Shown here in pieces: positions 39,375 to 64,000 of a stretch of 64,000 nt of DNA. The translations under genes and the position numbers were made by a program. The notes under the pieces are model-generated. The model ran no database searches and was not told the DNA's origin. It worked only from the letters and a program-made list of their open reading frames with translations. Source of the DNA: an uncultured Planctomycetota bacterium (GTDB taxonomy: Bacteria > Planctomycetota > UBA1135 > GCA-002686595); assembly GCA_963829015.1 (NCBI GenBank), contig CAWHGR010000005.1, positions 12,738 to 76,737 on the forward strand. Reading direction: 5' to 3'. Each line of letters starts with the position of its first letter. Position 1 is the first letter of the stretch.

Positions 39375-40875
<1,501 letters not shown>

Positions 40876-40885
40876 ACTCTAGCGG

Positions 40886-42099: not shown

Positions 42100-42110
42100 G
42101 AGGAGCTCCG

Positions 42111-44078: not shown

Positions 44079-44081
44079 GCG

Positions 44082-44090: not shown

Positions 44091-44102
44091 CGGGAAACTC
44101 GC

Positions 44103-44468: not shown

Positions 44469-44476
44469 GGTCCCCG

Positions 44477-45178: not shown

Positions 45179-45181
45179 GGC

Positions 45182-48100
45182 TCAGGGCAGACGCACCTGC
45201 GTCCGCCCGTGCGCCGGGATCTCGACCTCGATGGGGGAGTCCGTCTTCCCCGCGACGATCACGCGCGCCTTCGCCGCGGGCAACGCATCGAGCGTCGCGT
45301 GTCCGCTTGCGTCGAGGATCGCGTGCATGGTCCAGAGTGCGCCGTTGGGGAGACCCGCATGCACCTGGATCGCGGCGCCCGGATTGCCCTCGACGTCGAG
45401 AGCTCCGAGTTCACACTCGAGCACCCAGCGCAGTCCATCGCTCGGGACGGTCAGGCGTGCCTCGATGCAATCATCCCGGTCGACCGTGCCTGGCGAGCGC
45501 AGCGAGAGGATCTGCGTGCCGAACGTGGCGGCCTGCAGACGAAAGCTGCTCTTCGCGGAGAGCAGAGTCGCCCTCTGGTAAGCATCCCACCAGCGATCCT
45601 CCGGCGCGAGCGTGGCCGTCCAAGACGGACAGGCATGGCCATCGAGCAACATCCGGCCTTCGAGGCAGCGCGACTCGGGCCCACGTACATCGAAGTCGCA
45701 GGAGCTCGTCTGGCTTGCCGTGACCTCGACGCGCTTCAGCAGGGAGTCCTCGATCTGCGTGCCTGCGGGCAGCAGTTGGGAAGAGTTGCTGGTGTCCGGC
45801 ATCACGCGCAGCCACCAGCTTCCCGGAGCCAGTCCATCGATGCTGTAGCTGCCATCGGGCGCGATGCGTTCGCAGCGCGGATTGTCGAGGCCGCAGGAGT
45901 ACAGCACCTGTGCTGCGCGCCCGCGCGTCTCGAGCGTTGTTTCCACATGTCCCTTGATGGACCCGGATGCGGCGACATCGATGACGAGGCCCTCGAGCGG
46001 GTGACCGACGGCGAGTTCGACAGGCTGCGTGAACACGACATTCCCCGTGCGGCCTTCGCCCCAGAGCATGAACCGCCCAGAGCCAGAGACCCCGATTGCG
46101 AAGCTCCCATCGTCCCGCACGCTGGCCCTCGTCCCAGGCTCGGCGAGTTGCGGCATCCCGTCATTGCGCAGACGAGGCTCGCCGAACGGGGCATCAAGGT
46201 GGACCACCAACCAGTTCTCCGGGCCTCCATTGCCGACGACGCGGCCACTCACCGAGGACGAGTCGGGCAGATGGAATGCGATCGTCGTGGGCACGTTCTC
46301 CTGCGTGAAGGGACCTTGCTCCTGCGCTGAGAAGCCGTCAGCCCCCACGCGTACCTTGAACGGTCTCGCTCGCGCAATCTGCGAGTACGTTCCGCCCGGC
46401 GCCGTGACCGTCCCCTCGAAGCCCGTGCCGTCCTCGGTATGCACCCCGAGCGAGTAGCGCTCGACTGGCGCGCCTGAAGGATCGTCGACGTGGACGTCGA
46501 AGCGGCGCGCGGGCGGCAGCTTGAGGACGAGTCCGAGTTCGCCCGGACGCACGCCGCGCAGCACGGCCTCGCCGGAGTCGCCGCCCGAGTCGCGCGCATA
46601 CAGCTCCACGAGCATCGCCGAACTGCCCACGAGCGTGAACGTCCCGTCCTTCTCGGCGCGCGTGCCGACGAACTCGTCCTCCGCGCCGAAGGTGTACTCG
46701 AGCTCCGCGTCCGCGCAGGGCTTCCCGTCTGCCGTGAGCACGGTACCGCGGATCGCAATGGCGCAGTCCTCGAGCACGAGGTCCGGCACGACGAACTGCT
46801 CTCCCGTCGAGAGCAGGAAGGGCTCGGCAAAAGCCCCTGAGCGCTTCTCGGCTGTCGCGTAGACCCGGAAGCAGCCCACGGGTACGCCAGGCATCGAGAA
46901 CGATCCATCGCTCGCGCACACCGCGCTGCGCAGCTGGGTCGAACGACTGAAGCTGCCGCGCTGTGCCTGAGCCCGCTCCTCGAGCGAGAGATCGGGGTAC
47001 ATCAGCTGCACCCTGGATTTCGCGAGCGGGGTCCCATCGCTGGCGATGCACCGCCCGGAAAGATCGGCGCCATCCTGAAGCACGACATCACCCAGAGCGC
47101 TCGGCTCTCCGAGCACGAGGGTCACAGCGACCTTGCGCGTAGCGTAGCCGCGGCACGAGAGCTCGAACTCGCCATCCCATGTGTTGGGCGGGAGGCCCGC
47201 GCGCTTCCCGCGCCGGCGCGAGCGGTCCGCATCGCGAATCGAGACCGAGGCTATCCCCGCGGCGTCGCTCAACGCCTGCGGCGCTTCCTCATCGGTGCAC
47301 TCGCGAATCGCTGAGCGGTCCGTCAGTTTCATCCGCGCCCCGCCGATGGCGACGCCGTGTGCGTCGAGGACGCGCGCAACCACGCGGGCGACGGGCTCCT
47401 CGCTCGCCGCGGACTTGATCGGATCCGCGGCGCTTGCAGGAGGATGGGCTTCCATGCGCTCCGAGTCCGACATCGGTGCGGAGAGCAGCCGCGCAGAGTC
47501 CTCGGCGAGCACAGGCTGGGAGTTGGCGAGCTCCTCGGGCGCATGCTGCGCACGGAGCACGGCATGGGCAGCAAAGCCCGCGAGACCGACGAGCGCGATG
47601 CCAGCAGCGAGCTTGACCCAGGTCGCGATCACGACTGCGGTAGCAGCAGCGGGCAATGCGCTGCTGTCGAGCCTTGCGAGAGGCGCGAGCACCATCGCCC
47701 AGGCCTGGCGATCCCCGCCGGCGCGCTCGTCGAGCTCGCGGCGCAGACACTCGAGCGCCTTCTGCAGTCGCGTGCGCACGGTGCTGTCCGGCACGCGCTC
47801 GCGCTCGGCGATCTGGCGCGAGTTCAAGCCGTGGAAGTAGCGACCGATGATCACGCGCCGCAGCGGCTCGTCGAGCGCTTCGATGGCCGCGACGAGGCGC
47901 CGCTGTGCGTCGAACGTCGGTCGCCGTGTCGATCCCCGCCGAATCATCTTCGCGGCGGCGCGTGAGAGTGCTCGCGCTCGCTTGCGTCGCTCTTCGCTGC
48001 GACGGCGGTTCGAGGCCGAGCTCTGCACGACGCGCGCCCACCACGCGCGCAGGCCGTCGCCGGCGGTCGGCGGGCGCTTCAGGGCCGCGACCCAGGCATC

Positions 48101-48235
48101 TTGCGCGACGTCGTCGGCCTCGTTGGGGTCGGAGAGCAGTGCGCGCGAGAGCATGCGCACCCAGTCCGCGTGCGCGAGCAGCTCGTCGGTGGTGGCCGGG
48201 CGGTTCCTGTCGGGGTCGGGTGTGCGCGAGTTCAT
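45182..48235 (-). CDS. ECF sigma-70 factor fused via one TM helix to a ~790-aa extracytoplasmic repeat domain (first ATG 48235; the open frame also begins at GTG 48247)
   Basis: Region 2: ADDVAQDAWVAALKRPP...LRAWWARVVQSSASNRRR. Region 4: LDEPLRRVIIGRYFHGLNSRQIAERERVPDSTVRTRLQKALECLRREL. TM helix: AAATAVVIATWVKLAAGIALVGLAGFAAHAVL. These are followed by repeated units such as IRGTVLTADGKPCADAELEY...KDGTFTLVG. There is no stop or frame break in 1021 codons. Confidence 0.8.
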   Translation of the reverse strand: MNSRTPDPDRNRPATTDELLAHADWVRMLSRALLSDPNEADDVAQDAWVAALKRPPTAGDGLRAWWARVVQSSASNRRRSEERRKRARALSRAAAKMIRRGSTRRPTFDAQRRLVAAIEALDEPLRRVIIGRYFHGLNSRQIAERERVPDSTVRTRLQKALECLRRELDERAGGDRQAWAMVLAPLARLDSSALPAAATAVVIATWVKLAAGIALVGLAGFAAHAVLRAQHAPEELANSQPVLAEDSARLLSAPMSDSERMEAHPPASAADPIKSAASEEPVARVVARVLDAHGVAIGGARMKLTDRSAIRECTDEEAPQALSDAAGIASVSIRDADRSRRRGKRAGLPPNTWDGEFELSCRGYATRKVAVTLVLGEPSALGDVVLQDGADLSGRCIASDGTPLAKSRVQLMYPDLSLEERAQAQRGSFSRSTQLRSAVCASDGSFSMPGVPVGCFRVYATAEKRSGAFAEPFLLSTGEQFVVPDLVLEDCAIAIRGTVLTADGKPCADAELEYTFGAEDEFVGTRAEKDGTFTLVGSSAMLVELYARDSGGDSGEAVLRGVRPGELGLVLKLPPARRFDVHVDDPSGAPVERYSLGVHTEDGTGFEGTVTAPGGTYSQIARARPFKVRVGADGFSAQEQGPFTQENVPTTIAFHLPDSSSVSGRVVGNGGPENWLVVHLDAPFGEPRLRNDGMPQLAEPGTRASVRDDGSFAIGVSGSGRFMLWGEGRTGNVVFTQPVELAVGHPLEGLVIDVAASGSIKGHVETTLETRGRAAQVLYSCGLDNPRCERIAPDGSYSIDGLAPGSWWLRVMPDTSNSSQLLPAGTQIEDSLLKRVEVTASQTSSCDFDVRGPESRCLEGRMLLDGHACPSWTATLAPEDRWWDAYQRATLLSAKSSFRLQAATFGTQILSLRSPGTVDRDDCIEARLTVPSDGLRWVLECELGALDVEGNPGAAIQVHAGLPNGALWTMHAILDASGHATLDALPAAKARVIVAGKTDSPIEVEIPAHGRTQVRLP

Positions 48236-48315
48236 GTCGGAGTCCACACCGCTCGGAGCCCGACTGTCGGCGGAAAGGCGCGAATCCGCAAGGCGGGACC
48301 GCGCCTGGCACTGGG

Positions 48316-48324
48316 TGCTAGAGT
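48316..48324 (+). promoter_or_regulatory. Extended -10-like element TGcTAGAGT, 9 nt upstream of ATG 48334 (leaderless-type spacing)
   Basis: Read directly from the sequence. No Shine-Dalgarno sequence fits in the 9-nt gap. Confidence 0.35.
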
Positions 48325-48333
48325 GGTCGGAGC

Positions 48334-49530: not shown

Positions 49531-49569
49531 GCGGGAATCCGCCCGGAATCGACAGTCCGAGCGCGCTCC

Positions 49570-49578
49570 TGGTATCGT
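49570..49578 (+). promoter_or_regulatory. Extended -10-like element TGgTATCGT, 10 nt upstream of ATG 49589
   Basis: Read directly from the sequence. Same spacing class as the elements at 44082 and 48316. Confidence 0.3.
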
Positions 49579-49588
49579 GGGGTTCCCC

Positions 49589-50461
49589 ATGACGACCAAG
49601 TCGCTCACCCTGTTCGATCTCGCGCCCGGCAAGGACCTGCTCGGGCAATACACCATCCGCCGTGCGCACCGCCAGGGCGGGATGTCGACCACCTTCGAGG
49701 TCGAGGACAAGAAGCGCAAGTCGGCCTGCGAGGTGCAGGTCTTCCCCGCGGCGCTGTTCGAGAGCGCGCAGCAGGCGCGCGAGTTCGCCGACAGCCTCGC
49801 GGCCTGGACGCGCGTGGAATCCAAGCACGTGCTCGCGTCCTTCGACGTGCACGTGCTCGAGGACGGCTCGATCCTGTACGTGACGGACATGCCGATCGGC
49901 AGCTCGCTGCGCGAGTGGCTGCGCGCGCACCCGGTCAGCTCGCCCGCGACCGTGATCGACATCGGCTGCCAGCTGCTCGAGGGGCTCAGCGCGGTGCACG
50001 CCGCGGGTCTCGTGCACGGCGACATCAAGCCGCACACGATCCAGATCGAGGACGGCAAGAAGCTGTGCCTCGTGCTGGCCGACGGCGGCATCACGCCCGG
50101 CCTGTGGACGGCCAAGCACCTGGGCGACAAGACGGCGCTGATCGGCACGCCCTTCTACGCGCCGATCGAGCAGTTCGGCGGCGAGTCGCCCAACGTGCAG
50201 TCGGACATCTACAACGTCGCCACGGTGCTCTTCGAGGCCGCGACGGGCACGATCCCCTGGAAGGGCAAGAGCTTCATCGAGGTCTTCCAGTCCAAGCTCG
50301 ACAAGCGCCCGCCGGCGATGAAGTCGCGCGCGCCCAAGGTGGACGTGCCGCCCGAGCTCGAGGACGTGATCGCCGGCGGATTGATGGCCGACAAGAGCGA
50401 GCGCTACGCCACGGCCGACGAGTTCCGCAAGCAGCTGCTGGCGGTGAAGAAGGGGACCTGA
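49589..50461 (+). CDS. Stand-alone Hanks-type Ser/Thr kinase-like protein with degenerate catalytic motifs
   Basis: The kinase fold is recognisable: HAAGLVHGDIKPHTIQI (HRDLKPxN-like), LADGGI in place of DFG, GTPFYAPIEQ (APE-like), SDIYNVATVLFEAATG and ERYATADEF. The beta3 VAIK position reads CEVQVF, so the Lys is absent. Confidence 0.7.
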   Translation: MTTKSLTLFDLAPGKDLLGQYTIRRAHRQGGMSTTFEVEDKKRKSACEVQVFPAALFESAQQAREFADSLAAWTRVESKHVLASFDVHVLEDGSILYVTDMPIGSSLREWLRAHPVSSPATVIDIGCQLLEGLSAVHAAGLVHGDIKPHTIQIEDGKKLCLVLADGGITPGLWTAKHLGDKTALIGTPFYAPIEQFGGESPNVQSDIYNVATVLFEAATGTIPWKGKSFIEVFQSKLDKRPPAMKSRAPKVDVPPELEDVIAGGLMADKSERYATADEFRKQLLAVKKGT

Positions 50462-50489: not shown

Positions 50490-52001
50490 TCAGCGGCTGG
50501 GCGCGACGAGCTGAGCGAGGTGGCGCTGTTGCGCCTCGTTCGCGTCCGCCCGCACGACGAGGTACCAGGCGCGCTGCGGATCCTGCGCACCCGGCTCATC
50601 GAAGCGCAGGCCGAACCATTCGAGCGCCTCGGTGTAGTCGAGCTCGTGCGTGGTCTCGAGCAGCTCGTGGAAGTAGTCCGCCAGGTCCGCGCCCGCGATC
50701 TCGGATGCGCAGGCCAGGAACTGCGCCGGCGTGAAGCCCTTCGCGCCGCTGTAGCGCGCGTAGGCGAGTCGCAGCACGTTGTCGAGGCTCTTCTTCTCCT
50801 GGGTCAGCCGCCGGATGCGCGCGTCGAGCAGGAAGCCGACCACCGGCCCCTTCTCGTAGTAGCTGATCGTGGTCTTCGGATCGCCGCCGACGCCGGAGCT
50901 CGAGGTCCTGCCCGCCGTGAGCGAGGCCTCGGCCAGCGTCTGCACCAGCCGGCCGGGCGTCGTCTGCACCGAGCGGATGTTGCCCGAGAGTCCGGCGAGA
51001 TGTTCCGCGAGCGTGCCCACACCCGAGCGCACGACCGCCAGGTCGCCGTAGTAGGTGGTCAGGCCTTCGGAGATCCACAAGCTCGGCGTGCTCGGGAGCC
51101 TCTCGTAGTCGAAGGGCCCGAGCTCGAGCGGGCGCAGGCGCTTGACGTTGATCGCATGGAAGTACTCGTGGCTGACGTACTTCCACCAGTCGAGCGAAGG
51201 CAGCGGCTCTCTCGGCGCGGGTGAGGAGGAGAGCAGCGTCGAATTCAAGTGCTCGAGGCCGCCCCAGCCGCCGCGCATGGCGTTGAGGAAGACGTAGCGC
51301 TTGAAGGGCAGCTCGCCCAGGAAGGCGCGCTGCTCGGCGACGATGCGCGCGAGCGTCGCGGCGACGGCCGCGCCGTCCCAGGCCCCGAGCGCGCCGAAGT
51401 CTGCCAGCACGTGCTTCGTGCCGCCGACCTCGAACTCGTGCAGGCTGAGCGTGCCGGCGACGACCGGCGAGTCGATCAGGACGTCGTAGTCGGGCGCGCG
51501 GTAGTGGTTCGGCTTGCCGTCCGGCGCCGGGTCGAGCGAGCTGATCGACTCCTTCCAGGCCGCGGGCAGCTCGAGGTCGAGCTCGTAACTGCAACCGTCG
51601 CGCTCCACGGGCGTGATGAACGTCGAGGGGCCGTTGATCACCGCGCAGTCCGTGCCCACCCAGCTGCCGGTGACGAAACGGCTCTGGCAATCGAGCTCGT
51701 ACTCGAGCACCACAGCAACCGCGCCCTGCGTCGCCACCACCCAGTGGTTCGACTTCCGATGCTCGACGGCGAGCGCCACGCCGGCATTCGTGTGCGCCGA
51801 GATGCGCTGGATGTCGCGCGCGTAATCGCCCAGCGCGTAGTAGCCCGGCGACCAGGCCGGCAGCATCAGCTCGAGGCTCGCGCGACCCGCGCACGGGATG
51901 CGCGCCTCGATCTGCGCCTGGTGCGTCTCGGGCGCCGGCGCTCGCAGCGTGTAGACGATCGGATCGGATGTGGCGAGTGCGAGAAGGAGATGCAGGAGCA
52001 T
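50490..52001 (-). CDS. M61 family (glycyl aminopeptidase-like) metallopeptidase
   Basis: LEHLNSTLL...SHEYFHAINVKRLRPLELGPFDY...LWISEGLTTYYGD is the HExxH plus downstream E pattern of M61. An N-terminal signal-like segment is present. Confidence 0.8.
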   Translation of the reverse strand: MLLHLLLALATSDPIVYTLRAPAPETHQAQIEARIPCAGRASLELMLPAWSPGYYALGDYARDIQRISAHTNAGVALAVEHRKSNHWVVATQGAVAVVLEYELDCQSRFVTGSWVGTDCAVINGPSTFITPVERDGCSYELDLELPAAWKESISSLDPAPDGKPNHYRAPDYDVLIDSPVVAGTLSLHEFEVGGTKHVLADFGALGAWDGAAVAATLARIVAEQRAFLGELPFKRYVFLNAMRGGWGGLEHLNSTLLSSSPAPREPLPSLDWWKYVSHEYFHAINVKRLRPLELGPFDYERLPSTPSLWISEGLTTYYGDLAVVRSGVGTLAEHLAGLSGNIRSVQTTPGRLVQTLAEASLTAGRTSSSGVGGDPKTTISYYEKGPVVGFLLDARIRRLTQEKKSLDNVLRLAYARYSGAKGFTPAQFLACASEIAGADLADYFHELLETTHELDYTEALEWFGLRFDEPGAQDPQRAWYLVVRADANEAQQRHLAQLVAPSR

Positions 52002-52055: not shown

Positions 52056-53033
<978 letters not shown>

Positions 53034-53498
53034 TCAGCCGTCCGGATCGGCCAGTGCGCAGGCGCGCACGGCGCGCTGGCCTTCGGCCTCGTCGACGAGC
53101 GTGAGCTTCGAGGCGAAGGTCCAGTAGCCCATCTCGCCCTCCTGTCGCACGAAGAGCAGACTGCCGGCACTGGCGCGGAAAGCCAGCTGCATGTCGGGAT
53201 CGCCGCGCGACTCGAGCGTGTGCGAACCCGGGGTCACCCAGCCGAAGAGATAGTCGCCGCCGCCGGTGCGACCGAAGGGATGCCCGTCGAGCACGAGCTC
53301 GAGTTCCAGCGAGCCCCCGCGCGCGCCCTCGCGGTACACGTACAGGCCGCACAGGTCCGGGCGCGTCTCGAAGGACTTGGCGCGCGCGTCGTCCTCGGCG
53401 CTGGCCAGCGGGACGTGCGTGCAGGCGCTGGCGAGGAAGGCCAGCGCCAGCGCGCAGAGGAAGCGCGGGCTCAGGGCGGCGACTCCGCGAGCTCGCAC
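53034..53498 (-). CDS. DUF2846-like lipoprotein (start inferred at GTG 53498, overlapping the upstream paralog by ~28 nt)
   Basis: Lipobox ALAFLASAC, then CGLYVYREGARGGSLELELVLDGHPFGRTGGGDYLFGWVTPGSHTLESRG...AGSLLFVRQE. It is homologous to the adjacent gene. Confidence 0.5.
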   Translation of the reverse strand: MRARGVAALSPRFLCALALAFLASACTHVPLASAEDDARAKSFETRPDLCGLYVYREGARGGSLELELVLDGHPFGRTGGGDYLFGWVTPGSHTLESRGDPDMQLAFRASAGSLLFVRQEGEMGYWTFASKLTLVDEAEGQRAVRACALADPDG

Positions 53499-53902
53499 TC
53501 GAGCACGCCGGCCTTGCCGCCGTTCAGTCCCATCAGGTGCAGCTGGCAGCCGGCCGACATGAAGCCCCACTTCACCTCCTGCCAGACGAAGAGCAGCTCG
53601 CCGCCCCTGGCGTCGAGCGTCAGCTGCGAGTCGTGCTCGGCCTTCGAGAGCAGCTTGTGCTCGCCCGGCTCGAGCCAGGTGAACAGGTAGGTCTGCGCCC
53701 CGGTCGCACCGAGCGACTTGCCGTCGAGCATGACTTGCATGCTCACCGCTCCGCCGAGCGACTCGTTGCGGTAGACGTAAAGGCCGCACTTGTCCGGCAG
53801 CGTCTCGAAGGTCTTCGCCTTCTTGTCGGCCTCCACGCTGGCCCTGGGAACGGAAGTACAGGAGCTCACGACGAGCGCGAGCAGGATGGCGAGGGACTTC
53901 AT
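53471..53902 (-). CDS. DUF2846-like lipoprotein
   Basis: MKSLAILLALVVSSC (lipobox), then CGLYVYRNESLGGAVSMQVMLDGKSLGATGAQTYLFTWLEPGEHKLLSKA...GGELLFVWQE. A GGAGA Shine-Dalgarno sequence lies upstream. Confidence 0.6.
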   Translation of the reverse strand: MKSLAILLALVVSSCTSVPRASVEADKKAKTFETLPDKCGLYVYRNESLGGAVSMQVMLDGKSLGATGAQTYLFTWLEPGEHKLLSKAEHDSQLTLDARGGELLFVWQEVKWGFMSAGCQLHLMGLNGGKAGVLECELAESPP

Positions 53903-53999
53903 GATGGTCTCCACTGCGGCGGGATGCCGCGGCGCGCATTGTCGCTTTCGCTCCCGGCTGCCGCAATCCGGCGCAGAGACTATCCTGGCGCAGAGATCC

Positions 54000-56670
54000 A
54001 TGCCCCGCCGCACGCTCGCCATCGTCGCGCTCGCGCTGCTCGCCTGGCTTTTCGTACGAGCCCGGCCGCCAGACGGATCCACGCCCGCACCGCCCGTTGC
54101 GCCGGACTCGCTCGCGCACCCGGCGCCAGGCCTGGAGTCCGAGCCCGCCGCGGTCGAGGCGCCGCAATCGCCGCCCGGCCGTTCGCATCCCGACGGGGCG
54201 CTCTTCGAGCCGCTGCCCGAGGACCCGAGCGGGATCCTCGTGCACCTGCGCGACGCGGCGACGCATGCGCCCGTGCTCGGCGCCGAGGTGTTCGTCTGCG
54301 AAGAGCAGCGCTGGGACTGGTCCTCACTCGCCTACGACTCCGACGCGCCCTGGCCCGACGTCGAGGCCGAGCTGCGCGCGCGCGGCCGGCGCATCGAGAG
54401 CGACACGCAGGGCAACCTGCAGCTCCCGATCCCGTCCGCGTGGCTGGCCGTGATGGCGCGCAAGGACGAGCGCTTCGGCGCGCTCACGCTCGGCTTCGAG
54501 AACGCGCCCGAGGCGCAGCTCGACCTGTACGCGAGCAGCCCCTGCTCCGTGCGCATCCGCGACGCTGCGGGCCGGCCCGTCGCAGGCGAGCAGCTCGTGC
54601 TCGCGACCCAAAACGGGAACGCATTCTGGCGCGGCGCGAGCGACGCGACTGGAACCGCGCGCGTCCCGAACCTCGGCTGGCGGATCGCCGACGGCTCCGG
54701 CGACAGCGAGACCTGGTTCGCGATGGCCAACGACGCCTGCGCCGCGGCGCCGATCCGCTGGTTCGCCAGAGCCGAGCCGGCGCCCTCCGCATTCGAGCTC
54801 GTCGTCGGGGACGCGCAGCGCGTGCGCCTGCACGTCGTCGCCAGCGACGGGACGCGCGTCCCCATCGACGGGCACGTGGGCGTGTCGCCGCGCAGCACGT
54901 CGGGGAGCACCTCGGTGCTGCGCCTGCCGCGGCGCACGAACCCGCAACTGCCCCTCGCGCGCGGCGAGGCGCTCATCGCGCGCGGCGAACCGGGCGGCTG
55001 GCTCGATCTCGAGGTCGGCCTCGCCGGCAGCGTGAGCTTCGAGGCTGCGCTGCGCGTGCCCGCGCGCGGCGAGGCTGCGGGCGAGCTCACGCTGCGCATG
55101 CCCGCGGAGCTGCAGGTCCTGCTGCTGCACCCGACCGACGAGCAGGGCACACCGCTCGCGCGCCAGGAGTTCGAGTGGGTCTCCTGGGGACAGAGGGAGG
55201 GCGACGATCGCCAGCTCGACCAGCACATCGACCGCGTGCGGAGCGACGAAACGGGCCTGCTCGCGCTCGCGATCGCGCGCCTGGATTTGCACCCGCAACA
55301 GGCCGAAGAACCGGCTGGCCCGCGCAGAGCGTTCGTGCACAGCGGCGCCCTGCGTCTGCACGGCGCGCGCGAGCTCGAGAGCGCGACCTTCCCCTTCGCC
55401 GCGCTCGGCGCGGACGCCGTCCACGATCACGGTGCCCTCGCGCTCGCGAGCGCGATGCCGCTCGTGCGCGGCCGCGTCGTCGACGACCGCGGCCAGCCGC
55501 TGGCGCAGGTGCGCATCGGACTCGAGCAGCTGCACGTGTGGGACGGCGACCACGAGCTCGAGAGCCTGGCCGGCGTGGAGACGAAGTCGGGCGCGCGCAC
55601 CGGCGCCGACGGCCGCTTCGTGCTCTACGGCAAGTGCCTCGGCGGTCGCCTGCAGCTCAACCTCACGCGCGAGGGCTACCTCGCGCCGCGCGGCAGCGAG
55701 CAGGAGCTGTTCGAGTGCGGGAGTTCGCCCGACCTGCAGCTCGTGCTGCTCCGGCCGGCGGAGCTCGAGACCAGCGTGCGCGTCCCCGCGCGTCTCGATC
55801 GCCGGCTGGTCTGGCTCATCGACGACGGGAGCCCGGACCTGCGCATGGAGGAGATCGAGCCGCCTGCGGGCGGCGGCCTGCTGGTGCACGACCATGCGGG
55901 TTTCCTGCCCGGGACCTACCGCGTGAGCCTGCGCGAGCTCGACGACAGCACGGCGGCAGCGATCCTGGAGGTGGAGAACGTGCTGCTGCGGCCGGGCGAG
56001 CGCACGCTCGACCCGCGCCTCCTGGACGTCGACCTCATGCGCTTCGCGCTGGCCGGGAATGCGCCTCCGCCGGAGTTGCCCGGCGCAGCCGATCGTGCTC
56101 GAGATCCGCGACCTCGATGGCCGGCCGCTCTCCGACGGGCGGCTGGTCGAGCGCTTCGGCGACTTCAGCTCGGTGCAGGAGTGGCACGGAGGGCGCGTGC
56201 GCATCGAGCCGAACATGCAGCGCGCCTCGCTGACCATCTGGAGTCCGGGCCGGCTGGCCTGGATCGGCGAGTGTCCCGAGCAATCGGGCGAGCTGCGGCT
56301 GCAGCCGGCGCCGATGCTCAAGCTGCAGGTGCGCATCCCGCCCGAGCTGCGCCGCGCGGACTGGCACTTCCGCGTCGAGCCGCGCGTGGTGAGCTCCGAC
56401 CAGCGCCTGTGGGACCTCGCCACGCCGCTCGCGCCCGCGGATGTGGACGCCGATGGATCCGTCGCCTTCGAGATCCCGGGCGAGTTCACGCTCGGGCTGA
56501 GCCTGGTCGCGTTCGTGCTCGATCCAAGCGGCACGAGCTACCGCGAGGGCAGCGCTCCCTGCAGCGTGACCTATCTCACGCTGGAGGTCCCGGCCGGCGA
56601 CGGGCCGCACCCGATCGCGCCCACGCCCGAGGAATGGGCGGCGGCGGAGAAGGCGCTCGCCGGGAAGTGA
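54000..56670 (+). pseudogene. Membrane-anchored multi-repeat protein, tandem paralog B1; one frame shift at about 56060-56085
   Basis: MPRRTLAIVALALLAWLFV is the anchor. The protein is collinear with B3 along its whole length (ELRARGRRIESD, LPIPSAWLAVMARKDERFG, EFEWVSWGQ, ARTGADGRFVLYGKCLGGRLQLNLTREGY, ERTLDPRLLDVDLMRF). The C-terminal module continues in ORF 56059..56670 (PIVLEIRDLDGRPL...EEWAAAEKALAGK). Confidence 0.7.
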
Positions 56671-56702
56671 CCGCGGCTGCGGCGCGCCCTAGTGGGCGCG
56701 TC

Positions 56703-59309
56703 ATGCGCGGGACCATCCTCCTCGGCGCGCTGCTCGTGCTCGGCACGGCGCTCTGGTTCGTCCAGCGACCGGTCGAGCGCATCGGTTGCGAACGGGTGTC
56801 GCAGCTCGAGCCGATTCAGACTGAATCGAGGCGGGATCTGGAGTTCGAAGCAGACGGCCTGTCGGCTCACGCGGCGCGCACGCCCGGCTCGACCGAGGGC
56901 GCGCTGCGCTTCGAGGATCTCGAGCCGGAACCCACCGAGCTCGTCGTGCGGCTGGTGACGGGCGAAAACGAAGCGCCCGTGCTCGATGCGGAGATCTTCG
57001 CGCTCGAGCCCGGCTACGAAGTGTTCGACGTTGAGACTGAGGCGCGCGCGCGCGGTCGCAGGCTGGAGTGCGACGCGAACGGGCGAGTGTATCTGGGGCT
57101 GCCGCGCGCTGAGTTGTTCGTGTGTGCGCGCAAGGGCGAGCTCTTCGGAGGCGCGTGGTTCAGTGCCAGCGACGCGCCCGATGCCAGCCTGAGCCTGATG
57201 ATCACGCACACCTCCCGCGTGCGAGTCCTCTCCACGGCAGGCGAGGCGCTCGCGGGCATCCCGATCGTGATGGGGAATTCGCGAGGCAGCTCCGGGAACG
57301 CGACCACGGGAACGGCGGGGGAGCTGTTGCTGCCCAATGTCGAGTGGCTGATCGAGCACCGGCTCTACGCAAACCCCAGCTGGTTCGTGGGGGTCGATGC
57401 GCCGTTCGAGGAACCTCCTCTGCGCTGGTTCGACTCCGGCGCCGCGGCGCCGCTGTGGATCGACCTCACGCTCCCCGCGGCCAGCGCGCTGCGCCTGCGG
57501 GTGCTGGCCAGTGACGGCACGCCCGTGCCGGTCAGCGGCGAGGTCAGTCTCTACCTGCTCAACGGAGGCGATCACCGCGCCGCCGCACGCCTGAAGCGCG
57601 GGGAGACTACCGCCGTCCCGTTGATCGCCGGCGAGGCGCTGGTTCCGTGCGCCGAGCCGGGAGCATGGCTCGACGCCGACGTGGATCTCGACGGCGACAC
57701 CGCGATCCACCAGAACCTGCGCGTGCCCGAGACCGGCGCGGCGATCGAGCTGCGGCTTCCGAAGAACCTCCAGGCGCTGCTCTTCTGCGCCTGCGACGAG
57801 CGGGGTGTCGCGCTCGCGAGCCGCAAGCTCGAGTGGATCTCCTACTCGCAGGAAGAGGGCGACATCGAGCAGCAGGACACCAGCCACGACTGCGTGCGGA
57901 CGGACGAGCTCGGCCGTTGCGCGCTGGTCGTCGATCGGCGGGACTTGCAGCCGCCGGAGATCGACCCGGACGAGGACCCTCCCAAGCCGAAGCATTGGCG
58001 CGGCATCCTGCGCCTGCGCGAAGGAGCAACCCAGCTCGAAAGCGGGCCGATCGACTTCGGCGACCTCGGGGCCGGGAGTGTCAGGAATCTCGGGCGCGTG
58101 CAGCTCGCGGTCGCACAGCCGCTCGTGCGCGGTCACGTGCGCGATGCGGACGGGAAGCCGCTCGCGCGGTCGAGCATCGGCCTCGTCCAGCTGACCTCTC
58201 TCGATGGCAAGGAGTACCACATCAATCTCCTCGGGGTCGACGACGTCGAGTCGGAGGAGGACGGCAGCTTCGCGATCTTCGGCACCTGCCCGGGCGGCCG
58301 GCTGCGTCTGACGATCGACCGCACGGACTACGACCTGCCGGGCGAGGCGAGCATGCCCGAGTTCGACTGCGGCGCGAGCCCTGACCTGGAGGTCGTGCTC
58401 GCGCGAACCGGCACGCTGTGCACGAGCGTTCTCGCAGATGCCGCCCTGAGCCAGTGGTACCGGTGGGAGCTCGAGGATGCGAACGGTGAACAGCACGAGC
58501 ATCTCTCGGCCGATAACGGTCCCGGCGAAATCCCGAGAGAGTTCCGGTCGCTGCGGCCGGGGCGCGTGCGGGTCCGTCTCGTCCGCAGCGATACGCCGCA
58601 GCCGCCGATCGTTGAGTTCGACGACGTCATCATCCAATCCGGAAGATGCACATTCGACCCGCGGCTCCTGCGCGTGCCGATCCACGTGCCCCCGGGATCC
58701 GCGGCGGTGCTCGTGCGCACACCGGAGCCGCCCCCGATCCCGTTGCACATCGTCGATGAGCAGGGAGGCAGGATCGAAACCGGCTTGCTGATCACGTTCA
58801 CCCACTGCGGCTCGCACCAGACCGAGTTCCGCGGCGGGCGTGTCGATCTGCGCGCTTGCCAGGAGAGCAGCACGATCGGCCTGTGGGCTCCGGGACATAT
58901 GTACTGGGAAGGCCCGTGCCCCGAACGCGAGCGCGAGATGGTGCTGGAGCCGGCGCTGCGCGTGCGACTGCACGTCGACGAGCCCGAGGAGCTGCGCCGC
59001 GCGGGGATCCGCCTGCTCATGGACAGCGGCTTCCCCAAGGTTTGCCTCCAGAACCTCGCCGGTTCGGCCGAACTCGATCCGCAGGGCGACGTGCAGATCG
59101 AGTGCCCGCTCCCATGCCGCATGTGGATCGGCTTGCGCGGGATGGTGCTCGACAAGTCGGGAGCGCTGCGCGGCGCGCAAGTCGAGCTCGAGACCGAGGA
59201 GGACCTTTTCGTCGACGTCACGGACGAGCCGCTCGAGCAGCGATTCGAGCTGAAAATCCGCGCCGAGGAGTGGGCGGCTCTCGCCAGGGCGCTGGGTGTC
59301 GGCCGCTGA
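56703..59309 (+). CDS. Membrane-anchored multi-repeat protein, tandem paralog B2
   Basis: MRGTILLGALLVLGTALWFV is the anchor. It is more divergent than B1/B3 but collinear with them (ARARGRRLECDANG, LPRAELFVCARKGELFG, LEWISYSQ, VRGHVRDADGKPLARSSIGL...EEDGSFAIFGTCPGGRLRLTIDRTDY, FDPRLLRV, ...AEEWAALARALGVGR). Confidence 0.75.
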   Translation: MRGTILLGALLVLGTALWFVQRPVERIGCERVSQLEPIQTESRRDLEFEADGLSAHAARTPGSTEGALRFEDLEPEPTELVVRLVTGENEAPVLDAEIFALEPGYEVFDVETEARARGRRLECDANGRVYLGLPRAELFVCARKGELFGGAWFSASDAPDASLSLMITHTSRVRVLSTAGEALAGIPIVMGNSRGSSGNATTGTAGELLLPNVEWLIEHRLYANPSWFVGVDAPFEEPPLRWFDSGAAAPLWIDLTLPAASALRLRVLASDGTPVPVSGEVSLYLLNGGDHRAAARLKRGETTAVPLIAGEALVPCAEPGAWLDADVDLDGDTAIHQNLRVPETGAAIELRLPKNLQALLFCACDERGVALASRKLEWISYSQEEGDIEQQDTSHDCVRTDELGRCALVVDRRDLQPPEIDPDEDPPKPKHWRGILRLREGATQLESGPIDFGDLGAGSVRNLGRVQLAVAQPLVRGHVRDADGKPLARSSIGLVQLTSLDGKEYHINLLGVDDVESEEDGSFAIFGTCPGGRLRLTIDRTDYDLPGEASMPEFDCGASPDLEVVLARTGTLCTSVLADAALSQWYRWELEDANGEQHEHLSADNGPGEIPREFRSLRPGRVRVRLVRSDTPQPPIVEFDDVIIQSGRCTFDPRLLRVPIHVPPGSAAVLVRTPEPPPIPLHIVDEQGGRIETGLLITFTHCGSHQTEFRGGRVDLRACQESSTIGLWAPGHMYWEGPCPEREREMVLEPALRVRLHVDEPEELRRAGIRLLMDSGFPKVCLQNLAGSAELDPQGDVQIECPLPCRMWIGLRGMVLDKSGALRGAQVELETEEDLFVDVTDEPLEQRFELKIRAEEWAALARALGVGR

Positions 59310-59396
59310 GGTCCCGCGCTGATATTCGGTCCGCGTGACGCCGGCCTGCCGCGCTGAAACAGGTGACCGGGGTGCGCTAGACTCCTAGGTGTCGCC

Positions 59397-62066
59397 ATGC
59401 GCCGAAGGCTCCACCTGCTGCTGTCGCTGTCGATCGCCGCGCTGGCGTACATGGCTTGGCGCAGCGCCGGGCAGGTGAATGGGCCCGGTGCGGTGAGGGG
59501 CGAGCTCACGCAGACGCCAAGCGCAGACGAGCCCGGCGCTCTCGACGATCATGCCCAGGCCGCCGGCTCGCGCGCGGAGCCGGCTCCCGCGCTGCGCTTC
59601 GAGCCGCTGCCCGAGGAATCGTGCGAGATCCTCGTGCACATCGTCGATGGGATCACTGAGCAGCCGATCCTCGGCGCCGAGGTCTTCGTGCTCGACGTCG
59701 ACGAGTGGGACTGGCCGCTCGGCGGGTTGCGCACCGAAGAGATGCATCCCGATGCGGAGGCCGAGCTGCGCGCGCGTGGCAGGCGCATCGAGAGCGACGC
59801 GATGGGCGAGCTGCACTTGCCGATCCCGCGCGCATGGCTGGCGGTCATGGCTCGTAAGGACGGGCTCTTCGGAGAGTGTTCGGTCGCATTCGAGAACTCC
59901 CCGGAGACCACGCTGAGCCTGTACTCTTCGCGTCCCTGCGTCGTGCGGACACTCGATCGCGCCGGTCGTGGCGTCGCGGGCGTGACGGTCGTGCTGCGCA
60001 GGGGAAATGGCGGCGGATTCTGGCTGGGTCGCAGCGACTCGGACGGCGGGGCGCGCATCCCCAACCTCGGCTGGCTCGTGCAGGAACACTGCCCCGAGGA
60101 GCAGGCATGGTCCGCATCGCTGTCCGATGCCTGCTTCGACGCGCCCGTGCGCTGGTTCCTGGTCGGCGAGCCGCTGCCTGCGGCGATCGAGCTCACGATC
60201 CCTGATGCGCAACGCCTCGAGCTCGAGCTGGAGACGAGCGACGGCGCACGCGCGCCGATCGGCGGCTGCGTTCACGTCTCGATCCGAAGCGCCCCGGGAA
60301 GCGTTTCGGTGCTGCGCATTCCGCGCTTCACTGATCCCTATCTCCCGCTCGTCAAGGGCCGGGCTGTGCTCGCGCGCGCCGAGCCCGATAGCTGGCTCGA
60401 GTGCGACGTCTGGCTGCCCGGCGAGGAGACGTTCAGCGGCTCGGTGCACGTCCCGGAGGCGGGCGCCGCTGCAGGTCAGGCGACGCTGCGGATCCCGGCG
60501 TACCTGCAGATCGTTCTCGCGCGTCCCGCCGACGCGAGCGGCGCGCCGCTCGCGAACCGTGAGTTCGAGTGGGTTTCCTGGGCGCAGGCGCCGAAGGACG
60601 ACCTCGAGCAGGACCAGCACAAGGACAACGTGCGCAGCGACGCGCAGGGACGGATCGTTTTCGCGATCGGGCGAGCGGACCTCTTCCCGAACGAGCCCGA
60701 GGATCAAGACGAGCCGGCGCCGGAGCGTGCCTGGCGCGGCGTGCTGCGCCTGCGCGAGCCCGGGCAGGAGCTCGAGAGTGCGCCGATCCTCTTCCGCGCG
60801 CTCGGTCCCGGCGCCACTCGCTACCTCGGCGTGCTGCAGCTCGTCCCGGCGACGCCGATCGTGCGCGGGCGCGTGCTCGACGAGCTCGGCCGTCCGCTGG
60901 CGCACGTCGACGTGGGCATCGAGCAGCTGCGCAGCGTCGACGGAAAGGTCAAGCGCGAGAGCCTCGCCGGACTCGAGACCTACGGCCAGACGCGCACCGG
61001 CGCCGATGGTGCGTTCGCGATCTACGGCAGTTGCCCGGGCGGCTCGCTGACACTGCGCCTCGGCCGCGTGGGCTACCGGCTGCCGCGCGAGTCGCCCGAG
61101 GTCCGCTTCGAGTGCGGCAGCAGCCCCGACCTGACGCTCACGCTCGTGCGCTCTGGCGCCGTGCACATCAGCGCGCGCACGCCGCGCAGGCTGGCGCACG
61201 ATGTGAGGTGGGTGCTCGACGACGGCGTCGAGGAGCAGCGGCACGAGTTGCAGAGGGAACAGGGCATGGGCCTGCTCGAGTGCGAGTTCGAGGACGTCCG
61301 GCCGGGGAAGTGCCGCGTGCGCCTCGAGAGCGACTTCACGGACGAAGAGGCAATCCTAGTCGTGGAGGACGTGATCGTGCGGCCTGCCGAGCGGACCCTC
61401 GACCCGCGTCTCTGCGAGGTCGACCTCTCGCGCTTTGCCGTCCAGACGGAGGAGCCGTTCCCGGCAACACGCCCGCAAGAACCGATCGTGCTGCAGATCG
61501 TCGATCGCGACGGGCGTTCAATCCCGGAGGGGCGCCTCTTCGACGAGTACGGCGGCCACCGTTCTGACTCGGCATGGCGCGGCGGCCGCGTACGCATCGA
61601 AGGCAACCGCAGGGAAGCGCACTTCACGATCTGGAGCCCTGGCTTCTGCGCCTGGAGCGGTGAGTGCCCCGAGCGATCGGGTGAGCTGCGGCTCGAGCCT
61701 GCCTGGCGCATCGGGTTCGAATTCCAGGTCCCCGAGGCCCTGCGCAGGCCCGACAGGCTGGTCCAGCTCTTGCCCAGAGTGATCACGAGCGATTTCGGCT
61801 CGTCGGAAGTGCTCAACCGGATGGCGCCGGCCGTGGTCGGGAGCGACGGGCGCGTCAACTTCGAGGTCCCGGGCCCGTGCTACCTCGGCTTCGTGGTGCA
61901 GCTCGTTGCGCTTGATCGCTCGGGCACGGCGTTCCGCGAGGGAATCGAGCCGCAGGTAGTGGACGACTTCTCGATGCAGATCCCGCCAGGCGACAACTCC
62001 TACGAGATAGATGTCGACTCCGAGCGCTGGGCCGCAGCGGAGAAGGCTCTGTGCGGCGGGCACTGA
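59397..62066 (+). CDS. Membrane-anchored multi-repeat protein, tandem paralog B3
   Basis: MRRRLHLLLSLSIAALAYMAW is the anchor. Intact 889-aa ORF with VRGRVLDELGRPLAHVDVGIEQL...TRTGADGAFAIYGSCPGGSLTLRLGRVGY and C-terminal ...SERWAAAEKALCGGH. Confidence 0.8.
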   Translation: MRRRLHLLLSLSIAALAYMAWRSAGQVNGPGAVRGELTQTPSADEPGALDDHAQAAGSRAEPAPALRFEPLPEESCEILVHIVDGITEQPILGAEVFVLDVDEWDWPLGGLRTEEMHPDAEAELRARGRRIESDAMGELHLPIPRAWLAVMARKDGLFGECSVAFENSPETTLSLYSSRPCVVRTLDRAGRGVAGVTVVLRRGNGGGFWLGRSDSDGGARIPNLGWLVQEHCPEEQAWSASLSDACFDAPVRWFLVGEPLPAAIELTIPDAQRLELELETSDGARAPIGGCVHVSIRSAPGSVSVLRIPRFTDPYLPLVKGRAVLARAEPDSWLECDVWLPGEETFSGSVHVPEAGAAAGQATLRIPAYLQIVLARPADASGAPLANREFEWVSWAQAPKDDLEQDQHKDNVRSDAQGRIVFAIGRADLFPNEPEDQDEPAPERAWRGVLRLREPGQELESAPILFRALGPGATRYLGVLQLVPATPIVRGRVLDELGRPLAHVDVGIEQLRSVDGKVKRESLAGLETYGQTRTGADGAFAIYGSCPGGSLTLRLGRVGYRLPRESPEVRFECGSSPDLTLTLVRSGAVHISARTPRRLAHDVRWVLDDGVEEQRHELQREQGMGLLECEFEDVRPGKCRVRLESDFTDEEAILVVEDVIVRPAERTLDPRLCEVDLSRFAVQTEEPFPATRPQEPIVLQIVDRDGRSIPEGRLFDEYGGHRSDSAWRGGRVRIEGNRREAHFTIWSPGFCAWSGECPERSGELRLEPAWRIGFEFQVPEALRRPDRLVQLLPRVITSDFGSSEVLNRMAPAVVGSDGRVNFEVPGPCYLGFVVQLVALDRSGTAFREGIEPQVVDDFSMQIPPGDNSYEIDVDSERWAAAEKALCGGH

Positions 62067-62079
62067 GCGCCTCGCCGTC

Positions 62080-62085
62080 TATACT
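62080..62085 (+). promoter_or_regulatory. -10-like hexamer TATACT, 8 nt upstream of GTG 62094
   Basis: Read directly from the sequence. It lies inside the 27-nt gap after B3, with no Shine-Dalgarno sequence. Confidence 0.25.
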
Positions 62086-62093
62086 CTGTCCGC

Positions 62094-62855
62094 GTGACAC
62101 CACACCTCGCCTACGTCGAGCACAACCTGCCTGCCTCAACGCCGGAGGAGCGCTTCGCGCTCGCGCGCGCGCACTCGCTCGAGCTCGAGATCGCGCACAA
62201 GGACGACGACCGCGCCGCACGCGCACGCGACGCGGGCCTCGCGATCGCGACGCTGCAAGCCTGGCGCCTGCACGAGGTGCACCCGATCCATCCCGACAAG
62301 AAGGTGCGCGGCGAGGCCTATGAGCATCTGCGGCGCACGATCGAGCTCGCGGCGAAGCTCGGCGTGCCGCGCGTGATCGCGGTCGCGGGCTACGGGCAGG
62401 AGATCTGCGCCGATCCGTTCGAGGAAGCGCGCGCGTTCTTCCGCTTCCTCGCGCCGGTCGCGCGCGACAACAAGGTGCGCGTGCTACTCGAGCCGCTCAG
62501 CCCTTTGCGCTGCGCCGCGCTGACGGCGCCGATGGTGCTGGCGCGGCTGCTGGAGGAGATCGGGAGCCCGGATGTGTTCGGTTCGGCGATCGACACGGGG
62601 CACGTGATCGACTCGGGCCGCGAGGTGGACGAGTACCTCGAGCGCTGGCCGCGAGCGGTCGAGGAGCTGCAGCTGAAGGGCAAGGGCTCGTCGCCGCCGG
62701 AGCACGATGTGCCGCTGGCGAGGTGGTTGCGCAAGCTGAAGGCCGTGCCGGATGTCGTGTGCGTCGAGCACCGGCTGCCGATCGAGGCCGAGGAGCTCGG
62801 GAAGCTGCTCGAGCATCTGCGCGGGGAGCTACGCGCATTCGCTAGGTCCGTCTGA
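62094..62855 (+). CDS. Sugar phosphate isomerase/epimerase (xylose-isomerase-like TIM barrel) family
   Basis: ...HLRRTIELAAKLGVPRVIAVAGYG...VRVLLEPLSP...DTGHV...VCVEH is the typical AP-endonuclease-2/TIM-barrel metal-ligand spacing (E...D...H...E). Confidence 0.65.
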   Translation: MTPHLAYVEHNLPASTPEERFALARAHSLELEIAHKDDDRAARARDAGLAIATLQAWRLHEVHPIHPDKKVRGEAYEHLRRTIELAAKLGVPRVIAVAGYGQEICADPFEEARAFFRFLAPVARDNKVRVLLEPLSPLRCAALTAPMVLARLLEEIGSPDVFGSAIDTGHVIDSGREVDEYLERWPRAVEELQLKGKGSSPPEHDVPLARWLRKLKAVPDVVCVEHRLPIEAEELGKLLEHLRGELRAFARSV

Positions 62856-62878
62856 CGTACGGGGCGGGGGAGCGAAGA

Positions 62879-64000
62879 GTGGAATTCCAAGAGTTCGTCC
62901 GAACCCTGGCGGACCACTCTGGGTTGGGTGCGCGCGTGAAGCACGGCGTGCAGAGACTTGGGGTAGTGGAGAGACTCGGGCAACTCGTCCCGGGAGCGCT
63001 GTTCGTGCTCGCCTCCGCTCCGAGGGTGTCCGCCCAATCAAGTGTCGCGGTGGAGGCGAAGCGCGATCCTCCCGATGGCCTGGGCTACCCACCTTGCCCG
63101 CTCAATGACGTCGACGGCGATGGGTGCGCTGACTTCGCGATCGACGACGGCTGCGACATCGCGTGGGTTATCTCGGGCAAGACGGCGAAGGTTCTCGCGA
63201 CCGTTCAGGCTCTCGACGTACGAGGGACTGATGCGGTGCGGCAGGTGCAACTCGTTCGCACTCCGCGGTGACCTCGACGGCGACGGTCGTTGGGACCTGC
63301 TTGACCTCGGGAACGGCCAGCATCAACCGAGGATCGCCCGATCTGGGCGAGATCTGCACGCCCTGGGGCGGGAGTTCGGGATGTCCTGGGATGGTCCCTG
63401 GAATCGAATGGAGCGACCGGGGATCGGCGATTGGGATGGCGATGGAACTCCCGACGTGATCACGCGATTCGCGCCGGGCGAGGCGAGCCAGGCTTCAAGG
63501 TGCTCTCGGGCAAGACGGCCGAAGCGGATCGGCTTCTTCGACGGACCGGAGTTCGCGCACAAGAGATGTCTGTGCTGCGGCGACTACAACCACGACGGCA
63601 AGAGTGAGGCACTCGTTGCCGACGGCGCAGGCTGGAGCGCATTCCTCCTCGGGCAGGGCCTCGAGGAGCCGCTCGCGACGCTGCAGGATGATGGCGAGCC
63701 GCCCGAAGCAGGACTCGAGGAGGAGATGAGTTGCGCCGCGGCGTTCGTCCCCGACATGGACGGCGACAAGCGCGACGACATCGTGTTCGTGCGACCGGCA
63801 GTTCGAGATGTGGACTGACGTCGACGCCTTGCAGCAAGTGGCACGCAGCGCACCCGAGCGCCGGCAAGGCAGTCATCCGCTCCAGCAGTACCGGGCAAGC
63901 TCCTGAAGACACTTGACGCAACGCTAGCCATGTCCGAGTGCGACGGGGCGGCAGTCGCATCCCTCTCGGACGTCGATCGCGATGGAGTGCCGGATTTCGC
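62879..64000 (+). pseudogene. FG-GAP/VCBS-repeat secreted protein(s), frame-shifted, running off the window end
   Basis: Repeated DxDxDG calcium-loop motifs DVDGDGCADF, GDLDGDGRWDL, GDWDGDGTPDV, GDYNHDGKSEAL, PDMDGDKRDDI and DVDRDGVPDF are found in successive frames. A signal-like segment ALFVLASAPRVSAQ lies near the start. Confidence 0.55.

Follow-up and report, generated by a model that had tools for sequence, protein, structure and literature searches.

What do three long, tandem genes without a recognisable catalytic signature do for the cell that carries them? The question is raised by a 64,000-nucleotide (nt) stretch of contig CAWHGR010000005.1 (assembly GCA_963829015.1), listed under an uncultured Planctomycetota bacterium. 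This whole stretch is called the window here, and coordinates are window positions unless another locus is named. A reading made earlier from the sequence alone (the sequence-only reading) had described three head-to-tail genes, here B1, B2 and B3, as a dedicated envelope system associated with a nearby sigma factor. Our analysis indicates that B1-B3 are most likely old paralogs of an unnamed family of ~870-amino-acid (aa) single-pass membrane proteins. We hold with moderate confidence that they are non-catalytic, membrane-anchored binding or scaffold proteins facing the envelope. The three genes are as follows (ORF, open reading frame; L numbers denote loci outside the window).

54000..56670, + strand: B1, 889 aa once one extra base near 56088 is removed; as it stands, frame 0 passes into frame 1
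56703..59309, + strand: B2, 868 aa, intact ORF; ortholog L002_d is 86% identical
59397..62066, + strand: B3, 889 aa, intact ORF; ortholog L001_a is 67% identical

The ORF coordinates bear out the head-to-tail order on the + strand, with spacings of 32 nt between B1 and B2 and 87 nt between B2 and B3. The proteins align from end to end with 49% identity for B1/B3, 35% for B1/B2 and 36% for B2/B3, in agreement with the earlier description of collinear paralogs in which B1 and B3 form the closest pair. At the DNA level, the repeats across B1-B3 show collinear similarity of only 60-73% at the gene period of ~2.7 kb. Identical tracts between the three genes were not found in the DNA; the duplication is therefore old and bears no sign of recent gene conversion, which can be ruled out as long identical tracts are absent.

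B2 and B3 are intact as they stand, but B1 is not, and its frameshift near 56088 had been overlooked. The B1 span of 2671 nt is not divisible by 3. An extra G is present at GGCGCA[G]CCGATC, and the 93%-identical ortholog L002_c (GCA_041643195.1) is intact without that base. Programmed frameshifting can be ruled out, given this intact ortholog. Relative to their L001/L002 orthologs, ordinary genes nearby are also broken: the frame breaks number at least four in the Oxidored_FMN gene, two in an enoyl-CoA hydratase gene, one in an acyl-CoA dehydrogenase gene, three in an aminotransferase gene and one in an FG-GAP gene. These breaks point to an indel-rich assembly of the second half of the window. 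Since ordinary neighbours are frameshifted too, and the ratio of nonsynonymous to synonymous substitution rates (dN/dS) of B1 is still 0.33, an assembly error is the most likely cause of the B1 frameshift, as judged from the sequence comparison. Its position outside any homopolymer counts against this explanation, and a genuine, very recent inactivation of B1 keeps some probability.

The anatomy of the proteins agrees well with the earlier description. The sole hydrophobic segment of each B protein is the N-terminal one. The transmembrane helix begins at residue 3-5, so that only 2-4 residues precede it. A linker rich in Pro, Ala and Glu follows at about residues 24-74, and positions 25-62 of the AlphaFold2 model of B3 are disordered. 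In the B3 model, helices span 3-23 and 875-885, and the residues from ~67 to 871 form all-beta domains. A conserved amphipathic helix makes up the C-terminus of the B proteins. The alignment also contains the conserved parts reported previously, namely the head, the C-terminal module and the EEWAA..AL tail. With 5 sequences as input, AlphaFold2 reached a predicted local distance difference test score (pLDDT) of 69 and a predicted template modelling score (pTM) of 0.40 for B3, and with 26 sequences a pLDDT of 83.9 and a pTM of 0.76. The high pTM (0.76) indicates that, in the model, the arrangement of the domains in the body is fixed rather than that of loose beads.

The 26-sequence family alignment was divided into domain-sized blocks, which were compared profile against profile. 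D1, D2, D3, D4, D6 and D8 are mutually homologous repeats (probabilities of 55-97%). No sequence similarity to these six repeats was found in the profile-profile comparison for D7 and D9, which are domain-sized beta segments, or for D5 (46 residues). The at least six beta-sandwich-like repeats of the sequence-only reading are thus confirmed, in a body of about nine beta domains. Pfam recognises one above-threshold CarboxypepD_reg domain (PF13620) per protein at approximately residues 489-583, with scores of 35.3 bits in B1, 34.1 in B2 and 40.8 in B3 against a cut-off of 32.3. The domain is matched in 26 of the 26 family members, and the five other repeats are homologous to it at the profile level. 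The remaining Pfam matches (Big_1, bMG3 and TTR) are weak. Residues invariant across the family are the Gly, Asp, Phe and Arg of the repeat cores, and the invariant Gly and Asp are structural. Divergence between the paralogs is distributed along the whole chain, and the transmembrane helix, D1, D6 and the tail are best conserved. Between B2 and L002_d, identity is ~90% in most domains and only 66% in D7 (~58460-58770), which is either a local divergence hot spot or a recombination patch.

A motif search of B1-B3 found no C[GAS]EQ thioester, LPXTG, HEXXH, GDSL or lipobox motif, in line with the earlier statement that protease, thioester and adhesin-anchor motifs are missing. As no catalytic family or motif was found, the B proteins are predicted to be non-enzymatic. 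NCBIfam gave no match to B1-B3, and a PDB sequence search with B gave nothing meaningful. Foldseek was run against PDB with both B3 models and against BFVD with the first one. It returned only beta-sandwich chains, namely a TIE protein, pilins, SpyCEP, contactin, the Vps13 VAB domain, alpha-2-macroglobulin/complement and phage Ig-repeat (immunoglobulin-like repeat) proteins. The TM-scores were at most 0.33 overall and at most 0.20 for the confident second model, the 26-sequence one, for which Foldseek found no global PDB match. Neither profile nor structure searches assigned the proteins to a characterised family, as had been anticipated from the sequence.

Two known classes of beta-sandwich proteins have to be weighed at this point. 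Alpha-2-macroglobulin and complement proteins, which are built of macroglobulin (MG) domains, are likewise beta-sandwich chains. A bacterial protease trap of the alpha-2-macroglobulin type could explain the weak bMG3/MG4 Pfam matches in a few members and the local Foldseek matches to alpha-2-macroglobulin, complement and CD109 chains. However, the B proteins lack the thioester motif, the bait region, the CUB domain and the thioester domain (TED), as well as a lipoprotein signal, and no TED or A2M Pfam match was found in them. The bMG3 match scores 15.6 bits against a cut-off of 34.9, TM-scores are at most 0.11 (at most 0.08 to 4u48 and 6tav), and at 1538 residues the solved bacterial alpha-2-macroglobulin chain (4u48) is roughly twice as long as a B protein. 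A protease trap is effectively refuted by these features and is extremely improbable. Gram-positive pilins and TIE/CnaB-type adhesins, which gave the best Foldseek E-values, share with the B proteins a tandem array of Ig- or transthyretin-like beta-sandwiches. Unlike these and the Big_1 adhesins, the B proteins have neither LPXTG nor an outer-membrane beta-barrel anchor and are held by the N-terminal transmembrane helix. Big_1 itself scores below threshold (21.5 bits against 34.9), and the barrel domain is absent. Whether the B proteins are nevertheless exported as an adhesin or coat is considered again below, together with the turnover of gene copies.

The family is much larger than a fast search suggests. 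A word-indexed search for relatives of B3 retrieved three among 5.8 billion sequences, and an exhaustive profile search retrieved 1,389 cluster representatives at E <= 1e-3, of which 468 reach E <= 1e-10. Among the top 151 matches, 114 are sigma-less proteins of 820-940 aa, 106 of them with an N-terminal hydrophobic segment. Many of the 151 have a loosely conserved C-terminal helix, and both this helix and the length of ~870 aa are kept down to ~20% identity. B1-B3 display all features of the family: a length of ~870 aa, an N-terminal transmembrane helix, a linker, about nine collinear beta domains and a C-terminal helix. Pfam and NCBIfam contain no model dedicated to it, and a cluster look-up found no named member. 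The named, more distant matches are annotated as "carboxypeptidase regulatory-like domain-containing protein" or "sigma-70 family" of Planctomycetota. A search of the GTDB species representatives with B-family patterns found no relative, and the best match there of the alcohol dehydrogenase encoded next to the array is 54% identical. The CarboxypepD_reg domain is common to all three B proteins and to generic PF13620 proteins of Planctomycetota and other phyla. In contrast to those, the B proteins are constant in length (~870 aa) and in the order of their about nine domains, and they have the conserved head and the C-terminal helix. The generic name itself carries no functional information.

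A second form of the family carries a sigma factor. In 8 of the top 151 matches, an N-terminal extracytoplasmic function (ECF) sigma domain is present, and fusions of ~1055-1076 aa continue with a full B-type anchor and ectodomain. The profile alignment, made for three of them (P0065, P0077 and P0098), places B profile positions 7-877 on residues 202-1050 with E ~1e-100. Since the alignment includes the transmembrane segment of the B profile and runs to its C-terminus, the B anchor has a true transmembrane helix as its homologue. The B proteins are predicted to be oriented N-in, C-out and to keep their anchor uncleaved. In these predicted proteins of other bacteria, the B module can supply the external portion of a membrane-tethered sigma factor. 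The ectodomain of P0098 is closest to the sigma-less P0074 (42% identity over 816 aa), nearer than to any other fusion; sigma domains have therefore been gained or lost more than once. According to a published account for Planctomycetes (Pinto and da Fonseca 2020, PMC7671368), sigma2-sigma4 duplicates land in coding regions that are already there, and the product encoded downstream becomes their C-terminal extension. The interleaving of sigma-fused and sigma-less B forms matches such an insertion into existing genes. C-terminal extensions are a recognised mode of ECF regulation (PMC7826278). In the sigma-B fusions, the extension is a full B-type anchor and ectodomain; B1-B3, with only 2-4 cytoplasmic residues, differ from these proteins by having no sigma domain. 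Pfam and NCBIfam found no sigma-70 region 2 or region 4 domain in B1-B3; both are present in a neighbouring 1021-aa protein.

The setting of the array was compared across genomes. A metagenome scan with a 12-sequence B alignment found 5 loci, and the block Pkinase - ADH - [B array] - AP_endonuc_2 is common to the window and five other genomes. The neighbours in the window are the following.

45182..48247, - strand: membrane-tethered ECF sigma fusion type 1, 1021 aa, 5.75 kb upstream of the array
49577-50461, + strand: Pkinase, small Ser/Thr kinase, conserved syntenic neighbour
50490-52001, - strand: M61 peptidase, conserved syntenic neighbour
52056-53033, + strand: zinc-type alcohol dehydrogenase/quinone oxidoreductase (ADH), conserved syntenic neighbour
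53034..53498, - strand: second DUF2846 lipoprotein gene, ~154 aa, lipobox LASAC; GTG start at 53498 taken from the L002 ortholog
53471..53902, - strand: DUF2846 lipoprotein gene, 143 aa, lipobox VVSSC, divergent from B1
53903..53999, no strand: divergent DUF2846/B1 intergenic region; a -10-like TATCCT precedes the B1 ATG by 15 nt, and a Shine-Dalgarno sequence is lacking
62094..62855, + strand: AP_endonuc_2 (xylose isomerase-like TIM barrel), directly 3' of the array in every related locus

In L092, the most divergent relative, Pkinase, ADH, a single B gene and AP_endonuc_2 (6955-12366) all point the same way and are only 25-47 nt apart, an operon-like arrangement. The M61 and DUF2846 genes, which lie on the opposite strand in the window, are seemingly later insertions into an L092-type block. 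The number of B copies and of DUF2846 lipoprotein genes differs between the loci.

L001: 1 B copy, 1 DUF2846 lipoprotein gene
L092: 1 B copy, no DUF2846 lipoprotein gene
Window: 3 B copies, 2 DUF2846 lipoprotein genes
L004: at least 3 B copies, partly fragmented, 2 DUF2846 lipoprotein genes
L002 / L003: 4 B copies, 3 DUF2846 lipoprotein genes
L086-88: 4 B copies, 1 DUF2846 lipoprotein gene

Clustering of the copies gives at least 10 B paralog lineages with 22-50% mutual identity. The window and L002 are 93-95% identical in DNA, yet three whole B genes differ between them: B_a of L002 (together with a DUF2846 gene) and B_b are absent from the window, and B3 is absent from L002, its ortholog being the sole copy in L001. 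The region upstream of B1 and its first ~30 nt match B_b of L002, and the rest follows B_c. This hybrid 5' end is the footprint of a deletion by recombination between anchor-coding 5' ends. The B genes form a birth-and-death multigene family with one to four copies at one fixed locus. The dN/dS values are 0.33 for B1, 0.32 for B2 and 0.46 for B3 (0.16-0.59 in neighbouring genes), and by this measure the B genes are under purifying selection.

The turnover of copies is one reason to consider that the B proteins are exported and act as a cell-surface adhesin or coat, with phages, predators or substrates exerting diversifying pressure. Genes are gained and lost rapidly between 93-95% identical genomes, and the folds matched best are those of pilins, TIE adhesins, an FdeC-like protein and phage Ig-repeat proteins. 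However, no sorting signal of the sortase, beta-barrel, type IX secretion system (T9SS) or PEP-CTERM type was found in the B proteins, and the N-terminal segment is homologous to the true transmembrane helix of the sigma fusions. A dN/dS of ~0.3 without a hypervariable domain also argues against such a role, and we regard a surface adhesin or coat as very improbable.

The location of the array beside lipoprotein genes, as originally described, is confirmed by the two divergent upstream DUF2846 genes with their lipoboxes. No function of DUF2846 was found in the literature. The pairing invites another explanation, in which B proteins anchored in the inner membrane span the periplasm and dock on the DUF2846 lipoproteins, perhaps via the C-terminal helix, thereby joining the membranes or positioning an outer-membrane component. 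Divergent DUF2846 genes with lipoboxes lie beside the arrays of the window, L002, L004, L001 and L086-88, the length and the C-terminal helix are maintained across the family as noted above, and the modelled inter-domain geometry (pTM 0.76) appears fixed. This trans-envelope tether is quite unlikely, as the single B gene of L092 is kept without any DUF2846 gene and distant members have no DUF2846 neighbours. A role in anti-phage defence was ruled out, as PADLOC gave no match for B2, B3, both DUF2846 proteins, AP_endonuc_2 and the sigma fusion.

The sigma factor near the array had been one argument for a dedicated system. Sigma fusion type 1 contains sigma region 2 and region 4, a hydrophobic segment at approximately residues 203-228 and an ectodomain of CarboxypepD_reg repeats. 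Its orthologs occupy the same position in L004 (63% identical) and L092 (55%). A second fusion of 849-850 aa, type 2, comes after AP_endonuc_2 in L001 and L004; in L092 it is placed farther downstream, separated from AP_endonuc_2 by two genes. Next to AP_endonuc_2 in the window and L002, type 2 is missing. Wherever flanks are visible (window, L001, L004 and L092), one or more sigma fusions are found no farther than ~6 kb from the array, so that the expected co-occurrence is seen in related genomes. A sigma factor about 6 kb away with the same type of repeat had been described; the distance (5.75 kb) and the CarboxypepD_reg ectodomain are as described, but the B architecture is absent from it. 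Alignment of the local sigma ectodomain with B by hhalign gave a probability of 11.8% and E 0.0025, and hmmsearch gave repeated CarboxypepD_reg matches or nothing. On these comparisons, the local sigma ectodomains are evidently not B-type, and only the generic CarboxypepD_reg repeat, in a different arrangement, is common to both.

Transcription signals provide a further comparison. Upstream of the type 1 sigma gene, at 48261-48289 on the - strand, there is a conserved block, TTGCGGATTC-N17-AGTCGG...GCGGTGTGG. The TTGCGGATTC-N17-AGTCGG block is kept in the window, L092 and L004 although the sigma proteins are only 55-63% identical, and the window contains a single occurrence. The block may be an autoregulated ECF promoter. 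This motif was not found upstream of the B genes, and a search for an ECF-type promoter common to the sigma gene and the B genes was negative. A scan of 53400-63000 found no canonical sigma-70 promoter or terminator, and Rfam had no match in the window. A -10-like element (CTAGACT, CTAGAAT, CTAGAGT or TATCCT) precedes the start codon by 6-17 nt in most B genes and in the aminotransferase gene, and a Shine-Dalgarno sequence is lacking there; the element is seen at 59377-59383, 53978-53983 and 48310-48320 in the window and also upstream of the B genes of L002 and L004. These features suggest leaderless or near-leaderless mRNAs with one promoter per gene in this lineage.

What, then, links the B proteins to the sigma factors? 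They could be regulatory partners of the sigma fusions, as sigma-less co-sensors or decoys that bind the same signal, hetero-oligomerise with the fusions or compete for the releasing protease, and thereby tune sigma activation. Proximity speaks for such a partnership, with type 1 retained in the window, L004 and L092 and type 2 in L001, L004 and L092. The conservation of the small Ser/Thr kinase gene in the same block and the use of the B module itself as a sigma-fusion ectodomain elsewhere point in the same direction. However, neither the ectodomain architecture nor the upstream motif of the local fusions is shared with the B genes, and the window and L002 have lost sigma type 2 beside AP_endonuc_2 and kept their arrays. 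Distant B-type genes, like the sigma-B fusions, are found singly and amid unrelated neighbours, and the synteny is seen among related genomes only. Because these relatives hold the whole syntenic block in common, the co-occurrence of sigma gene and array may be inherited rather than functional. Planctomycete sigma fusions can also arise by fortuitous insertion into existing genes (PMC7671368). We therefore consider a regulatory partnership unlikely, although it deserves more weight than the tether or the adhesin.

RsgI-type anti-sigma factors of Clostridium thermocellum offer a further comparison, as they are single-pass proteins with a multi-domain, non-catalytic ectodomain and are encoded near an ECF-type sigma factor. 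The B proteins differ from these membrane anti-sigma factors in having no cytoplasmic anti-sigma domain, their N-terminal tail being only a few residues long, and no anti-sigma Pfam match was found in B1-B3. Taken as a whole, the dedicated envelope system of the sequence-only reading stands in so far as the genes are real, conserved and under purifying selection, with a sigma fusion near the array in all visible flanks. Its sigma partnership does not follow, for the reasons just given, and a dedicated envelope system that includes the sigma factor is no more than a possibility.

We return to B1-B3 as non-catalytic, membrane-anchored binding or scaffold proteins. A short, positively charged N-terminus would lie in the cytoplasm, followed by one transmembrane helix, a disordered tether and an extracytoplasmic beta body of about nine domains. 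The proteins would act by binding, as scaffold or recognition proteins facing the envelope, and the paralogs would probably differ in what each binds. Whole B genes are lost through recombination between their anchor-coding 5' ends. Against the picture of binding proteins, it has to be said that binding is deduced only from missing catalytic features and from the roles of such folds elsewhere, and that the divergence between the paralogs is not focused in one obvious specificity domain.

Several observations concern the surroundings rather than the B proteins. An FG-GAP repeat gene lies just 3' of B-type genes in the window (62969-64000), L002 (16143-17471) and L004 (21209-22495), and also beside a distant B-type gene (L095, 11954-13582) and near a sigma-B fusion (L093, 11639-14152). 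This proximity may be a coincidence in FG-GAP-rich genomes or a recurrent association. One sigma-B fusion adjoins PSCyt1/PSCyt2/PSD1 and DUF1501 genes, which are typical of Planctomycetota. Two genomic signatures are combined in the window, one in 1-34600 and one in 35000-64000, and its two halves correlate at only r = 0.59 in tetranucleotide composition. The signature of 1-34 kb matches Hyphomicrobiales loci (r ~0.9), whereas the 36-64 kb signature resembles those of L002 (r 0.97) and of loci carrying planctomycete hallmark genes (r 0.88). For BipA (7289-9115, - strand), an NCBI protein with 100% identity exists, and the identity to Xanthobacteraceae TypA is 92-93%. The alphaproteobacterial half also contains a low-GC stretch (0.56) with genes for a DDE_5 transposase (25058-26431) and an AbiEii toxin-like protein (27041-27976). 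The window is either a chimeric assembly or contains a very large foreign island, with the join between the end of the GGT gene (~34605) and a gene called 'A' (35048-37591, + strand). The product of 'A' is a large membrane protein with CarboxypepD_reg domains. Its 5' part lies near 34900, and a transmembrane-coding stretch is located ~150 nt upstream of the main ORF in a different frame. As only the CarboxypepD_reg domain is common to both, 'A' was ruled out as a fourth B paralog. Frame-split genes occur in the second half of the window at 39400-49600, 56088, 63256 and ~35040, and 'A' is probably one of them.

The fold type and the existence of sigma extensions are already known. A family of fixed architecture that exists in stand-alone and sigma-fused forms and is arranged in dynamic tandem arrays was not described in the libraries and literature searched. 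If the family is as it appears, it would provide a name and an architecture for ~1,400 unannotated clusters from uncultured, probably planctomycete-like bacteria. Otherwise the practical value is modest, as repeat-rich beta-sandwich envelope proteins are common in these lineages. A more far-reaching proposal is that the B-type ectodomain is the input module of a one-component, membrane-tethered ECF sigma factor and that the stand-alone B proteins are exchangeable decoys or co-receptors that set which envelope or external ligands release sigma. We judge it very unlikely, but if true, it would add a regulatory logic so far undescribed among ECF sigma factors, in which the make-up of the array retunes specificity between close strains. 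Whether and how ECF extensions regulate sigma activity is a question raised in the ECF literature (PMC7671368). The B proteins are the stand-alone counterpart of the large extracytoplasmic extension on some membrane-tethered ECF sigma factors, and the existence of sigma-fused and sigma-less versions, together with natural strains that differ in array content, makes this question testable.

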